Source: a virus
Length of the DNA: 40,460 nucleotides
Virus genome (UHGV): UHGV-1390708
Strand: one strand, 5' to 3'
Shown: piece by piece, positions 7,098-10,908 of the stretch
Position numbering within the stretch: position 1 is the first letter of the stretch
Layout: each line of letters begins with the position of its first letter
Translations under genes and position numbers: made by a program
Notes under the pieces: generated by a model
Seen by the model: only the letters and a program-made list of their open reading frames with translations
The model's database searches: none
Told to the model about the DNA's origin: nothing

Positions 7098-8066
7098 TTA
7101 GTAGGTTATTTTTGTTGCGAATACTTCGCCTTTTACGATGGCTGTTATGATATTTTTAGCAACATCTTCTGATGCGCCAACCTTGATAAGGTCAGCAAGT
7201 ATTTTGTTATTTACTTCTTTCCGGTGAGCTTTATCCTTTGCTCTACGCTCTTCTTCGTCCTTGATTCTTTTTTCTTCTGCTATTCTGGCTTGCTCTTTTG
7301 CTTCAGCCTCGCGACGGATTCGTTCAGCCTCCTCCTGTGCTTTTCTGCGTTCTGCTTCAATTGCTGCCTGCTTTTCTCTTTCAGCTCGTTCTGCTGCCTC
7401 TTTTGCTTCGCGCTGTGCTCGTTGCTCGGCTTCAATGCGTTCACGCTCTGCACGTTCCGCTGCGGCCTTAGCTTCTGCTTCTCGCCTTGCTGCTGCTTCA
7501 ATTTCGGCTTTTGCCTTTGCTTCGGCTTCTGCTCTGGCTTTCTCTTCAGCTTCTCTTTTTAAGCGTTCTTCATGCTCTCGCTTTTCCTGCTCCGCTTTGA
7601 GTCTTGCCTCTTCTCTTTGGCGGTCAAATTCGCGATCCATCAAAATCGCTATTTCATGGTCAGACTCAATTTGCTTTGCGAGAGCTTCAGCTGCTGCCTT
7701 AGCTTCTTCTTCGGCTTTAATCCGTGCCTGCTCCTCCTCATAATCAGTAAGAGGCTGGCGCGCCTTGGCTTTCAGTTCATCAAGGCGATCGCGCACTGTC
7801 TTGCGGTTGGCATCAATTAGCTTTGGAATTTCCTTCAGTTCAGCAACAAGGTCTTTGCCAAGACCATCGAGATATGTTTTCGTCTGCGCAACTTTATACG
7901 CCAGAGAAGCGATCTCCTTTCTGCCCTTTGCCGTTGTGATATCAGGCACAAAGGACATAACTTCACGTTCAACCTTTTGAAGGATTTCTTCAATCTGGTC
8001 GGCAGACTGAAATACAGTCATTGCATTTGCTTTTTCAATAACAACTAAATCTGTTACTTCACTCAT
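7098..8066 (-). CDS. Hypothetical coiled-coil protein with a long E/A/K/R-rich repeat region
   Basis: ORF 7098..8120 trimmed to the Met (MSEVTDLVV) preceded by GGAGG; about 170 residues of EAKA/ERAERE-type low-complexity helix. Confidence 0.7.
   Translation of the reverse strand: MSEVTDLVVIEKANAMTVFQSADQIEEILQKVEREVMSFVPDITTAKGRKEIASLAYKVAQTKTYLDGLGKDLVAELKEIPKLIDANRKTVRDRLDELKAKARQPLTDYEEEQARIKAEEEAKAAAEALAKQIESDHEIAILMDREFDRQREEARLKAEQEKREHEERLKREAEEKARAEAEAKAKAEIEAAARREAEAKAAAERAERERIEAEQRAQREAKEAAERAEREKQAAIEAERRKAQEEAERIRREAEAKEQARIAEEKRIKDEEERRAKDKAHRKEVNNKILADLIKVGASEDVAKNIITAIVKGEVFATKITY
7230..7750. repeat. Low-complexity coding repeat (GCT/GAA/AAG-rich) inside the coiled-coil gene
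   Basis: Reiterated gctgaagc / gcagaagc units visible in the sequence; they generate the spurious antisense ORFs listed in the track. Confidence 0.6.
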
Positions 8067-8078
8067 ATATCCTCCGTC

Positions 8079-8105
8079 AAAAAAATTGCCCTCACACTGG
8101 AGGGC
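8079..8105 (-). terminator. Putative intrinsic terminator in the leftward operon (tL-type)
   Basis: Hairpin gccctc-acactgg-agggc followed on the minus strand by AATTTTTTT, about 13 nt upstream of the coiled-coil gene's Shine-Dalgarno. Confidence 0.5.
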
Positions 8106-8241
8106 AAAGAAGATTTCCAATAATCAGAACAAGTCGGCTCCTGTTTAGTTACGAGCGACATTGCTCCGTGTATTCACTCGTTGGAATGAATACACAGCGC
8201 AGTGTTTATTCTGTTGTTTATGCCAAAAATAAAGGCCACCA

Positions 8242-8442
8242 TCAGGCAGCCTTGTTATTCTGTTTACCAAGTTCTCTGGCAATCATTGCCGTCGTTCGTA
8301 TTGCCCATTTATCGACATATTTCCCATCCTCCATTACAGGGAACATTTCTTCAGGCTTAACCATGCATTCCGATTGCAGCTTGCATCCATTGCATCGCTT
8401 GAATTGTCCACACCATTGATTTTTATCAATAGTCGTAGTCAT
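8242..8442 (-). CDS. ral: Ral-like restriction alleviation protein
   Basis: 66-aa ORF MTTTIDKNQWCGQFKRCNGCKLQSECM...; matches my memory of lambda Ral in size, sequence and position downstream of N. Confidence 0.6.
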   Translation of the reverse strand: MTTTIDKNQWCGQFKRCNGCKLQSECMVKPEEMFPVMEDGKYVDKWAIRTTAMIARELGKQNNKAA

Positions 8443-8512
8443 ACGGATAGTCCTGGTATTGTTCCATCACATCCTGCGGATGCTCTTCGAACTCTTCAAA
8501 TTCTTCTTCCAT
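8426..8512 (-). CDS. Hypothetical acidic micro-ORF (28 aa)
   Basis: Manual translation MEEEFEEFEEHPQDVMEQYQDYPYDYDY; GAGGTGA Shine-Dalgarno upstream; 3' end overlaps the ral start. Confidence 0.25.
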   Translation of the reverse strand: MEEEFEEFEEHPQDVMEQYQDYPYDYDY

Positions 8513-8570
8513 ATCTCACCTCAAATAAGTGGTTTGCTGCCTAATTTCATTTTCTGGCGACCAACACAAG

Positions 8571-8843
8571 TCATCTTGCTGTCAGTTGTTTTGATTTCCG
8601 GTAGCCTGCCGCGTAAATGGCTACGTTTGGCAGGCAAATACTTCCACTGCATTCATCTGCCTTCTTGCAGCGAAGGCTTCCGAGTGATGCTGCTTTGTCT
8701 GCTCTGACGCAACTAGAGATCTTTAGCGCAATTTTTCGCGCAAGTCTCTGCTCTTGCATTGCCTGTTCACGTTGAGCCTGCCTGCGTGCTCTGCGGCGAT
8801 TTCTGGCGTTATCGTCAGCCAGATATGTAATGACTACTGTCAT
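8571..8843 (-). CDS. N: N-type transcription antiterminator
   Basis: N-terminal arginine-rich motif NARNRRRARRQAQREQ; GGAGG Shine-Dalgarno 6 nt upstream; nutL lies upstream in the pL transcript. Confidence 0.7.
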   Translation of the reverse strand: MTVVITYLADDNARNRRRARRQAQREQAMQEQRLARKIALKISSCVRADKAASLGSLRCKKADECSGSICLPNVAIYAAGYRKSKQLTAR

Positions 8844-9202
8844 GTTGACCTCCGATGATTGACTTTGGTGGTGACGCGCCGGGTGCTTATCTTCCGGTTG
8901 CCGTCGTGCAGCTGCACTTCACGTCACCCCAAAGCCAACTACTCTTTGACTCACACTCTCGCAGTGAGCGCGCTCATGCCCTTGAGTCTCTGTCGCTTAT
9001 TAGCCGCTGATAACCGGTGCGCGTCTGGCATTCGCGCTGCCTTTCCGGAGCATGTTCCCTTATTTACCCTCACATCGGTCTGCTAAACCTGCTCGCCATT
9101 ACGCGACTCGGGGCAGCATCATTACTGCTGCATTGCCTTTCGGCTGCGGTCTAACCGCGTTAGTGCACCATTACGGCACCTCCTGTTTGGTTAAACTCAG
9201 TT

Positions 9203-9242
9203 CCCGCATTTCGGCGGGACAATCCCATCAATGTTAAAGAGC
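9203..9242 (-). promoter_or_regulatory. nutL (boxA GCTCTTTAA plus boxB hairpin)
   Basis: On the minus strand: GCTCTTTAA, 14-nt spacer, CCCGCCGAAATGCGGG; the boxB is identical to the nutR boxB. Confidence 0.6.
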
Positions 9243-9291
9243 CTGCCAATCTGTTCCGTTTGGCTACCAGCGTCCTGCTGATGGCTTAAAG

Positions 9292-9374
9292 ATAACTTAG
9301 GTTATAGGTGTGGTCAATAACCTAATTTATATTTTGTGGTAAATAAGTTATAAGTGATGGATAACAAAGGTATT
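9292..9374. promoter_or_regulatory. OL operator cluster and pL region
   Basis: Repeated 14-bp dyads of the form ATAAC-N4-GTTAT (ATAACTTAGGTTAT, ATAACCTAATTTAT, ATAACAAAGGTATT), matching the OR sites. Confidence 0.5.
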
Positions 9375-9504
9375 TTATTTTTGTAAATGTTGCTGATTGA
9401 TTGGTGTTTGAGGGCTTGCGTGCGGGGTGAAGGTGTTACCTTTGGCTTGATGCTTGTCTATGATGATGATGGGTGATTGGGTGGTGAACGGCAGGAAAAG
9501 AAAA

Positions 9505-9529
9505 CCCGGCGCTGAGGCCGGGTGTTTTT
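9505..9529. terminator. Bidirectional intrinsic terminator
   Basis: Hairpin cccggc-gctgag-gccggg with T-runs on both strands; ends the cI operon on the minus strand. Confidence 0.6.
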
Positions 9530-9824
9530 AGTCTTTTCTTTTGCTTAGCATTTCGTCGATTTCTAAGTCAATACGATATTGATCTATTGCTTTTCTCTCG
9601 TTTGGGGTTGGTATTTTATACTGTTCAATTAGATCTGTTGTGTATTTTATTTCATCTAATGTGATTTTTATATCAGAGAGAATCTCTTTTATATCAATTA
9701 GATGCTCTTCTTCTTTTGCGCGATTAGAGCTATGTTCAATCACTTGAGATAGCTTTTTACTAATGCTTAGCAAAACAAAAAGAATGATGACCAAAACAAC
9801 AACAAAAACTATCAGAAATTCCAT
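9528..9824 (-). CDS. Small membrane plus coiled-coil protein (moron in the rex position)
   Basis: 98-aa ORF; N-terminal transmembrane helix EFLIVFVVVLVIILFVLLSI then a charged helical region; GGAGGG Shine-Dalgarno; markedly AT-rich; immediately downstream of cI and followed by a terminator. Confidence 0.7.
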   Translation of the reverse strand: MEFLIVFVVVLVIILFVLLSISKKLSQVIEHSSNRAKEEEHLIDIKEILSDIKITLDEIKYTTDLIEQYKIPTPNERKAIDQYRIDLEIDEMLSKRKD

Positions 9825-9864: not shown

Positions 9865-10572
9865 TTACCAACTATGAGACGACCAGAATACTCTGCCAAT
9901 AATCCTTACGGTTTCATGAAATTCATCTCTATCCATTACTTCATCCGGGTACTCTTCGCGATTTATTGATCTGATTATCACCGATGTAGGGGTGGCGATT
10001 AATGTTTTTACTCGTAACAAATCAGACTGGCAAATAGCGTAGGTTTTACCATCTCTGATGGTGGTATCTTGCGTGTTAACACCAACAACATCGCCATCGT
10101 GAAGCGTTGGTTCCATGCTTTGCCCTACAACCCTAACTAGCTTGGCTGATCTTTCAGATACTCCCATCTTTTTCAGATAGTGCTTTCTGAAAACCAAAGA
10201 GAACTCCGATGATTCCTCTAGCTCGCAGCTACCGCTTCCAGCTGAAAGCGAAACGTTAAGAAGAGGCAACGCAACAAACTCGTCATCGTTTCTTTTAATG
10301 TCTTCCCATACCACAGCTTTTAAAGATGACTCACGGACATTGGATGGTTCTTCATGTGCACCATCCCTCATTTCACCAATACCAGAACTAAGCCATTCAG
10401 GGCGCACTTTTAAAGCATTGGCTAATTCAACCATCTTGCGAGATCCGTTTGTTTTACCGGACGACATCTTCTGTATGGCTGGCTGAGATATTCCAACCAT
10501 GTCAGCAAGCTGTGATTGTGATACCCCTGCTGAGCTCATGGCTGCATTTAGTCTTTCTGCGAATGTTTTCAT
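9865..10572 (-). CDS. cI: CI-type repressor (HTH plus LexA-like S24 peptidase domain)
   Basis: HTH 'SQSQLADMVGISQPAIQKM'; C-terminal 'VVGQSMEPTLHDGDVV' S24 motif. Start set at MKTFAERL because the longer form would run into OR. Confidence 0.85.
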   Translation of the reverse strand: MKTFAERLNAAMSSAGVSQSQLADMVGISQPAIQKMSSGKTNGSRKMVELANALKVRPEWLSSGIGEMRDGAHEEPSNVRESSLKAVVWEDIKRNDDEFVALPLLNVSLSAGSGSCELEESSEFSLVFRKHYLKKMGVSERSAKLVRVVGQSMEPTLHDGDVVGVNTQDTTIRDGKTYAICQSDLLRVKTLIATPTSVIIRSINREEYPDEVMDRDEFHETVRIIGRVFWSSHSW

Positions 10573-10584
10573 ACCCACAAATCT

Positions 10585-10647
10585 ATAACTACGGTTATCC
10601 AAAGTAAAATAACAAAGGTTATTGCTATTTTTTATAACTTGAGTTAT
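10585..10647. promoter_or_regulatory. OR operator cluster with divergent pRM/pR region
   Basis: Three dyads ATAACTACGGTTAT, ATAACAAAGGTTAT, ATAACTTGAGTTAT at about 24-bp spacing between cI and cro. Confidence 0.6.
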
Positions 10648-10683
10648 CTTTGGTTATAAGTAATGACCACAAGAGGTATGCTC

Positions 10684-10908
10684 ATGAATTTAGTAATTCA
10701 ACGAGCCTTGAAAATTGTCGGTAGCCAAAAGCGCCTTGCCGACAAGTGTGGTGTAACGCAGCCAGCAGTACACAAATGGCTGAAAGGCGGGTTGGTCTCT
10801 CCAGAGAAAGTTACCGCCATCGTTAACGCCACTGGAGGGCAGATCAAGGCTTACGAAATTCGCCCCGATTTGCCACACCTGTTTCCAAAACCGAATCAGG
10901 CAGCATAA
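10684..10908 (+). CDS. cro: Cro-like HTH regulator
   Basis: 74-aa form starting MNLVIQRAL, preceded by AGAGG; HTH 'QKRLADKCGVTQPAVHKW'; first rightward gene after OR. Confidence 0.75.
   Translation: MNLVIQRALKIVGSQKRLADKCGVTQPAVHKWLKGGLVSPEKVTAIVNATGGQIKAYEIRPDLPHLFPKPNQAA

Follow-up and report, generated by a model that had tools for sequence, protein, structure and literature searches.

The untranslated leader between nutL and the antiterminator gene N in virus genome UHGV-1390708, a DNA of 40,460 nucleotides (nt) that is called the window here, is made up of two independently inherited RNA elements. One of them, part B, is ancestral, lies next to N, is a homologue of the stem at the base of the lambda N leader and represents an ordinary, already known kind of feature. 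The other, part A, is an inserted module of 251 nt that makes up most of the leader, has no counterpart in lambda or HK620, and belongs to what is apparently an undescribed family of structured phage RNAs. An earlier account drawn from the letters of the window (the sequence-only reading) had treated some 330 nt as a single N-specific leader. This view does not hold, in that three quarters of the stretch (8949-9199) are a separately inherited module that is absent from HK620. The features are listed in Table 1, and all positions are those of the window unless a locus is named.

Composite anatomy of the leader

The two parts were separated by comparison with phage HK620, in which the gene order is identical and OL, pL, nutL and N are annotated. 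The two genomes are 92-98% identical in nutL, in the final 92 nt of the leader and in N, and the 251 nt of part A, located between boxB and CAAAGAGUAGUUGG in the alignment with the window, are absent from HK620 with sharp ends. The spacing from nutL to N is only about 107 nt in HK620, compared with about 360 nt from boxB (9203-9218) to the N start codon (8843) in the window. Models of N autoregulation that are based on the distance from nutL to N must therefore allow for an optional insert of 251 nt.

Several details of the sequence-only reading are borne out by this analysis. The leader is indeed unusually long and GC-rich (its G+C content of 55.5%, compared with 47.8% in the window as a whole, falls at the 98.7th percentile among 346-nt windows), is read on the minus strand, and follows a nutL boxB located exactly as described. 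The strong GGAGG of N exists as well, although at 8849-8853 rather than at 8843. All three motifs that had been singled out are present: the palindrome of 12 base pairs (bp) TGAGCGCGCTCA, at 8965-8976, one base away from the figure given; the inverted repeat GGTGACG...CGTCACC, as a portion of a longer repeat, the arms of which occupy 8859-8876 and 8922-8938; and the hairpin GCGGTCTAACCGC, which is the complement of GCGGUUAGACCGC at 9146-9158. Two of the three, the hairpin and the palindrome, fall within part A. The palindrome is not conserved among the relatives, most of which read GAGCGUGGCCAC, and we rejected it as a protein-binding site for this reason; it is an incidental by-product of three adjoining helix strands in the variant carried by the window. 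That the stretch holds conserved RNA structure is borne out by strong conservation and covariation, and no conserved protein-coding open reading frame (ORF) was found in it, so that neither of the refuting outcomes named in the sequence-only reading was seen.

Folding of the entire leader yields an energy only modestly better than that of shuffled sequences (z -2.15), so that the evidence for structure is comparative and not energetic. A scan of the window found no intrinsic terminator on the N strand within the leader, and ARAGORN found no transfer RNA (tRNA) or transfer-messenger RNA genes in the window. A terminator-like call on the plus strand at 9113-9131 is an artefact of the scan, produced by the complement of helix P3 together with the T-rich stretch behind it.

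Part B, folded alone as the last 115 nt of the leader, has a free energy of -43.5 kcal/mol, which is matched by 0 of 200 shuffles (z -3.7), and ends 5 nt before the GGAGG of N. It is 98% identical to HK620 and 83% identical to lambda over 81 nt. When the lambda leader is folded alone, GGCUUUGGGGUG and CACC-A-CCAAAG form its closing arms as well, and the bulged A is found there too. Part B thus shares with the lambda N-leader stem its location between nutL and the ribosome-binding site of N, immediately 5' of the latter, as well as the stem arms and the long duplex, and differs from it in the interior of the hairpin. The 20-bp duplex is compatible with cleavage by RNase III, and the RNase III role of the lambda stem is presumed here to carry over to part B. 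Because part B is homologous to this structured stem, such a role in N translation is reasonable, and by homology part B most likely acts as in lambda, as an RNase III-sensitive stem that tunes N translation and the autorepression of N from nutL. According to PMC5725501, which also cites work on the modulation of this autorepression by RNase III, the lambda N protein represses N translation from nutL, which lies about 200 nt upstream, and the leader in between is highly structured.

The family to which part A belongs was collected with exact-match seeds. At least 119 IMG/VR viral contigs contain an exact copy of the core 20-mer GCCAGACGCGCACCGGTTAT (9010-9029), and 34 further viral contigs carry a second core type, recognised by a type-specific pattern; overall, the family spans more than 150 viral contigs and about ten genera of Enterobacterales. 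Of 5426 complete E. coli genomes searched with BLAST, 113 contain the element, and neither these nor the other records have it annotated as an RNA. The exact 20-mer is also found in 19 species-representative genomes, 17 of them from Enterobacterales, with Kluyvera, Citrobacter, Pseudocitrobacter, Klebsiella, Leclercia, Hafnia and Ewingella among the genera represented. The other two, assemblies labelled as Firmicutes (a Vagococcus sp. and a Bacillales metagenome-assembled genome), most likely carry the 20-mer through contamination or mis-binning and not as part of the true host range. The GenBank phages that contain the element number only about ten and include mEp213, two Stx2c phages, Hafnia phage yong1, EcoS-733R5 and 716R3, Klebsiella phages RothC and RothD, and Providencia phage PSTCR7lys. 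The short BLAST matches in mEp237 and phiKO2 proved to be full-length diverged members with another P8 stem and another P7-P10 module, and Edwardsiella phage EPP-1 is a member too.

The membership of the window itself was established with a covariance model, R1, built from an alignment of 3' domains (A5, described below) without the window. Its single match in the window, with 98.9 bits and E 8e-18, covers positions 8950-9050 of the minus strand, so that the 3' domain from P7 to P11 is recognised from other members, and the model finds nothing in the HK620 or lambda loci. The 5' features of the family, that is, a Shine-Dalgarno (SD) sequence and mini-ORF abutting P1, the GUNNUGA loop of P3 and the CCY:RGG pseudoknot, are all present in the row of the window in the full-length alignment (A4). 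No second copy of part A was found in the window. Rfam 15 reported nothing over the element at E values up to 10, either in the window (8300-9700) or in six loci with diverged copies, and a literature search on the core sequence and on descriptions of such a motif found nothing.

Predicted fold and mini-ORF of part A

In the first MAFFT alignments, lineage effects and a misaligned variable middle region dominated both the RNAalifold predictions and the raw mutual information; because of this, the helices were defined by hand and then counted against controls. Two alignments were used, both made with MAFFT and not structure-aware in the variable middle region: A4, with 54 copies of less than 92% mutual identity, on which the hand-built structure was counted, and A5, with 44 3' domains including the second core type, from which R1 was derived. 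The predicted fold comprises roughly eleven helices, including a pseudoknot, and is backed by compensatory changes. In A4, 95.7% of the cells are paired, compared to 22-40% when the 3' partners are slid by 1-3 columns, and the covariation score is 0.123, against 0.079 ± 0.003 in shuffles, none of 500 being as high. The overall score of A5 is 0.300, against 0.151 in shuffles, again with 0 of 500 as high.

Individual helices show the same pattern. The pseudoknot pair CCY:RGG covaries between CG (36 copies) and UA (13 copies) in A4, and one position of P8 displays four types of pairs in A5 (AU 18, CG 17, GC 5, UG 4). The terminal hairpin P11 carries a loop of GAGA, GUGA, GUAA or GAAA, the loop of P2 is GAAA, and conservation ends abruptly directly 3' of P11 in A4. 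Two alternative pairings were discarded: a long-range GAG:CUC helix closing the core, suggested by RNAalifold, in which the CUC covaries with the UGAG of P10 instead, and pairing of the P4 strand GUCGC with the core GCGAC, for which no covariation is seen in variants with a changed P4. The nearly invariant unpaired parts are the GCCA of the P8 loop, the AAGGGCA of the P10 loop and the strand GGUUA after P7; a kissing contact of three pairs, GCC:GGC, between the P8 and P10 loops is possible in these sequences. An invariant core within a covarying scaffold usually marks a binding or catalytic site.

Sub-modules, namely the type of the middle region, the P9 module and the type of the P11 loop, recombine between copies. 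Two copies (L010 and L117) lack the SD sequence, the mini-ORF and P1-P2, have an unrelated 5' segment in their place and keep the remaining fold; such natural variants could reveal the purpose of the mini-ORF.

Several observations indicate that part A is an RNA in the sense of N rather than a coding sequence on either strand. Each of the six frames is interrupted by stops in the majority of 106 distinct copies. The middle region, which varies between 60 and 84 nt, has lengths not divisible by three that break every frame, and no 3-nt periodicity was detected in the variable columns. These stops, non-triplet insertions and deletions, and the lack of codon periodicity rule out protein coding on both strands. 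Moreover, many G-U pairs are found among the compensatory changes in A4 and A5, and these occur only in the strand that has the sense of N. In RothC and RothD, two 'hypothetical proteins' are annotated opposite the element (2416-2752 of the RothD locus); because the relatives show stops and frame breaks there, these calls are probably spurious.

The sequence-only reading had seen no convincing ORF on the minus strand, which is correct with regard to protein-coding frames but overlooks an AGGAGG followed by a mini-ORF of three sense codons. The 5' border of the family consists of an SD-like motif and then a start codon at a single alignment column. Among 54 diverged copies, the SD-like motif is found in 49, most often about 8 nt before the start codon, which is ATG in 42, TTG in 7 and near-cognate in 3 copies, and is absent from 2. 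The layout is that of a bar-like minigene: an SD sequence, a start codon (canonical in 49 of the 54 copies), a few sense codons (one to three in 51) and a stop. Three sense codons are the most common (36 copies), with two in 7 copies and one, that is, a start directly followed by a stop, in 8. The stop lies 0-1 nt before P1 in 35 of the 54 copies. The identity of the codons varies, with AUG AAG CAC, AUG GUG CAC, AUG CAC CAG, AUG CAG AUC and UUG AAA CAG among the versions seen. Conserved position and length of the mini-ORF, combined with varying codons, suggest that what is selected is the loading of a ribosome and its prompt termination at the base of the fold, and not a peptide.

Genomic contexts and candidate functions

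The element is co-oriented with its neighbours in every case and occurs in contexts of three kinds: between cI, pL and nutL on one side and N on the other, as in the window; immediately behind the Q gene with its promoter and a tR'-like terminator, where tRNAs, holins or morons follow (RothD, mEp237); and after lysis genes, ahead of HNH or terminase genes (EcoS-733R5). Downstream of it, 49 different gene clusters were found at gaps of 7-450 nt, including holins, terminase, HNH proteins, tRNAs and secreted proteins. Fifteen clustered loci have an N gene 91 nt downstream of the module. A terminator-like hairpin is located right upstream in 28 of 136 distinct copies, and an intrinsic terminator follows P11 after 12-18 nt in a further 26 of these 136 (19%), the annotated phiKO2 terminator among them. 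No protein family is common to most of the 173 loci within 6 kb on either side; the largest 'family' near them is a spurious antisense ORF over the element itself. The element thus lacks the fixed relation to one gene or expression platform that would mark a riboswitch or a cis-acting leader.

Some loci are noteworthy in their own right. Phage mEp213 carries two different tandem N genes on its pL side (94-426 and 1579-1851 of its locus), one HK244-like and one HK620-like, and the second is preceded by its own boxB-like hairpin and a part A module. Genes for tRNAs are found near the element in some phages (2789-2948 in the RothD locus, L004; 529-1177 in L034). In RothD, tRNA-Ile and tRNA-Arg lie about 70 nt downstream of the element, an arrangement that recalls the cluster of tRNAs following Q in Stx phages.

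The anatomy described above is secure. Given the variable neighbours, the sharp borders, the occasional flanking terminators and the invariant core, we infer that part A may be a self-contained RNA, not a regulator of N, and may make use of leaders that are antiterminated and strongly transcribed. This is the interpretation that we prefer, with evenly divided confidence. The RNA would be made early, from pL, in the window phage, and late, after Q-dependent read-through, in other phages; because the post-Q copies are downstream of a tR'-like terminator, they should be made only after Q has acted. The SD sequence and the ORF of roughly three codons would load a ribosome that terminates at the foot of P1 and, by covering P1, shields the 5' side of the RNA and/or transiently opens this helix, allowing the pseudoknotted core to fold correctly. 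The folded RNA would act through the invariant unpaired core formed by the P8 loop, the P10 loop and the joining strand. Part A would be a lytic-phase RNA, with a folding or stability dependent on ribosome loading and an action presumably independent of N. A bolder extension, which we regard as tentative and rather doubtful, is that part A founds a new class of ribosome-primed structured RNAs that are made as the polymerase becomes resistant to termination and act in trans on a host machine, such as the ribosome, an RNase or an anti-phage defence, with translation of the mini-ORF being obligatory for folding or delivery.

Several points weigh against this interpretation. The steady placement of the element right after nutL or tR' could just as well reflect an action in cis, either on the transcription complex or on the message downstream. 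The shuffle controls for A4 and A5 ignore phylogeny, and the structure was drawn in part from the same sequences on which it was counted, which flatters the slid-partner control. The support for P1, P6 and P9 is weak or one-sided, and that for P7 and P8 comes from A5 only, both being invariant in A4 through ascertainment, as the exact-match seed lies on their 3' strands. With regard to part B, cleavage by RNase III is an assumption transferred from lambda.

The main rival, in our estimate unlikely, is that part A is a cis-acting stabiliser or insulator of the message, in which the ribosome on the mini-ORF and the compact fold block 5'-end-dependent scanning by RNase E, or define a processed 5' end, and thereby prolong the life of the downstream operon message. 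This would fit the invariable sense orientation, the constant position in an untranslated leader at the start of a long operon, after boxB or a terminator, and the combination of a strong SD sequence with a very short ORF; minigenes in bacterial leaders can open structure and raise downstream expression (PMC8708949, PMC3262186). However, an RNA of about 235 nt with an invariant core and a pseudoknot far exceeds the needs of a stabiliser, the gap to the next gene varies over the range given above, and about a fifth of the copies are followed by a terminator.

That the whole 340 nt form a dedicated cis-regulatory leader of N, with structures including an RNase III site that set N translation, is improbable. 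Part B is indeed a lambda-type stem beside the N ribosome-binding site, the 15 clustered loci have the module at a set distance from an N gene, and a greater distance from nutL to the SD sequence could change N autorepression (PMC5725501). Nevertheless, HK620 and many relatives use the same nutL-N unit without part A, a terminator directly follows some copies and, because the same module elsewhere, after Q or lysis genes, precedes unrelated genes, part A does not seem to be primarily an N regulator.

Slightly less probable still is a sensor of a ligand or factor, akin to a riboswitch, or an RNA that acts on the polymerase in processive antitermination or against Rho, like put of phage HK022. 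An invariant unpaired core in a covarying scaffold, placed where the polymerase has just been modified, after nutL or Q-dependent read-through, would suit such a role, but no expression platform keeps a constant distance to a regulated gene, N or Q is already available in these phages, no Rfam riboswitch matches, and put, with two stem-loops in about 70 nt, occurs in a phage without N. Processing of the operon transcript by part A as a self-cleaving or self-splicing ribozyme is very unlikely: the size, pseudoknot, GNRA loops, invariant core and sharp borders are ribozyme-like, and the element is mobile among phages, two of which have homing endonuclease genes nearby, but no group I or II intron or self-cleaving class matches in Rfam at E values up to 10, and a conserved 5' mini-ORF is foreign to the known ribozyme classes. 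Finally, we assign a negligible probability to conservation of an opposite-strand small protein or of a DNA-level site (a recombination boundary or a protein-binding site), for which one antisense frame that is open for a median of 62 codons and stop-free in 24 of 106 copies, the two RothC/D annotations and a 'boundary sequence' annotated near N in CUS-3 could be invoked, given the stops in this frame in most copies, the frame-breaking lengths of the middle region, the lack of codon periodicity, and the compensatory changes with G-U pairs on one strand, which indicate RNA.

If the preferred interpretation is correct, temperate phages of E. coli, Klebsiella, Citrobacter, Hafnia and their relatives share a large, precisely folded and unannotated RNA that has been overlooked in the best-studied lambdoid regions, the pL-nutL-N leader and the Q-dependent late leader, including those of some Shiga-toxin 2c phages. 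The family is compact, abundant and present in tractable phages, such as mEp213 on E. coli K-12, so that its function is directly testable.

Immunity region and comparison with known systems

The leader lies in an immunity region of the lambdoid, HK620/P22-like kind, in which the minus strand is the one read (Table 1). The pL-like promoter agrees in position with the pL/OL annotated in HK620. The ORF encoding 98 amino acids (aa) between cI and pL, the product of which has a hydrophobic N terminus, occupies the rexAB/moron position, and its protein is found again upstream of a part A element in one other locus. Downstream of N, an ORF of 340 aa (7098-8120, minus strand) encodes a protein whose long and highly charged middle is repeat-like and rich in E, K, A and R; a homologue is located downstream of the part A element in other loci.

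Table 1. Coordinates of the leader elements and their neighbours in the window, with the evidence for each.
Feature	Position	Strand	Evidence or remark
cro	10663-10908	+	
cI	9865-10602	-	
98-aa ORF	9528-9824	-	between cI and pL
Bidirectional terminator	9504-9523		3' of the 98-aa ORF
pL-like promoter (TTGACC, 17-nt spacer, TATCTT)	9289-9317	-	consensus scan
nutL boxA-like GCUCUUUAAC	9233-9242	-	sequence reading; aligns with annotated HK620 nutL
nutL boxB hairpin CCCGC-CGAAAU-GCGGG	9203-9218	-	same as HK620 nutL stretch
Part A, inserted structured RNA module, 251 nt	8949-9199	-	insertion relative to HK620; homologues
SD sequence AGGAGG of the mini-ORF	9179-9184	-	sequence reading
Mini-ORF ATG GTG CAC TAA	9160-9171	-	7 nt after AGGAGG; stop 1 nt before P1
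P1, GCGG/CCGC	9146-9158	-	85.5% paired (A4)
P2, GCC-GAAA-GGC, GNRA loop	9135-9144	-	90.8% paired; CG to GC and UA swaps (A4)
P3, GCAGCA/UGCUGC, conserved loop GUNNUGA	9113-9131	-	96.9% paired; 6 of 6 pairs change on both sides (A4)
Pseudoknot domain	9067-9112	-	CCC 9110-9112 with GGG 9067-9069, enclosing P4 and P5
P4	9093-9106	-	variants UCGC/GCGA, UCUC/GAGA, UCACC/GGUGA, UCCC/GGGA, UAGCC/GGCUA; alignments by eye
P5	9077-9089	-	CCUG/CGGG versus CCAG/CUGG; alignments by eye
P6	5' strand 9090-9092 with 9050-9052	-	inferred; weakest helix
P7, CCGG 9045-9048 with CCGG 9014-9017	9014-9048	-	encloses P8; 93.6% paired, G-U variants (A5)
P8, GCGCG with CGCGC, loop AAUGCCAGA	9033-9037 with 9019-9023	-	100% paired; 5 of 5 pairs change on both sides (44 sequences)
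P9, GCG 9005-9007 with CGC 8970-8972	8970-9007	-	RNAalifold; GC/GU alternation only; encloses a 2-bp hairpin and P10
P10, CUCA-AGGGCA-UGAG	8973-8986	-	UA to CG swaps; 98.6% paired
P11, terminal hairpin CUCAC/GUGAG, GAGA (GNRA) tetraloop	8950-8968	-	3' end of the module; closing pair GC, AU, CG or GU (A5)
Part B, long hairpin with 20-bp stem	about 8858-8939	-	fold; homologous to the stem at the base of the lambda N leader; approximate coordinates
SD sequence GGAGG of N	8849-8853	-	sequence reading
N antiterminator gene, 90 aa, arginine-rich N terminus	8571-8843	-	ORF list; N annotated in HK620 and mEp213

Among the known systems, the short pR'-proximal RNAs lambda 6S and StxS come to mind in that the element resides in the late leader just after Q in many phages. 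It differs from them in lying downstream of the tR'-like terminator, in having no sequence relation to them, and in being found in pL leaders as well. With the large phage-associated RNAs GOLLD and ROOL, part A has in common an ornate, prophage-borne fold of multiple helices, sometimes beside tRNA genes, as in RothD, without a protein partner nearby; in contrast to these RNAs, it is much smaller, has Enterobacterales hosts and a mini-ORF, and shows no match in sequence or to a model. The antitermination RNA put, which is about 70 nt long, consists of two stem-loops, acts in cis downstream of pL and pR and replaces the N-nut system in HK022, is likewise a structured RNA just downstream of an early promoter, at the position of a nut site. 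On its description, part A is set apart from put by its roughly eleven helices in about 235 nt, by the presence of N and nutL, and by its occurrence far from promoters.

We know of no described class of RNA in which a conserved, putatively translated mini-ORF is fused to such a fold. The lambda bar genes are minigenes of similar size. They and other leader minigenes (PMC8708949) resemble the mini-ORF of part A in the strong SD sequence, the start codon, the one to three sense codons and the stop, which mostly is UAA, and both are located on the transcript of an early or late phage promoter. What distinguishes the mini-ORF from these minigenes is that it is joined to a large, conserved RNA structure, its stop directly adjoining P1, and that its codons are not of the toxic AUA type.

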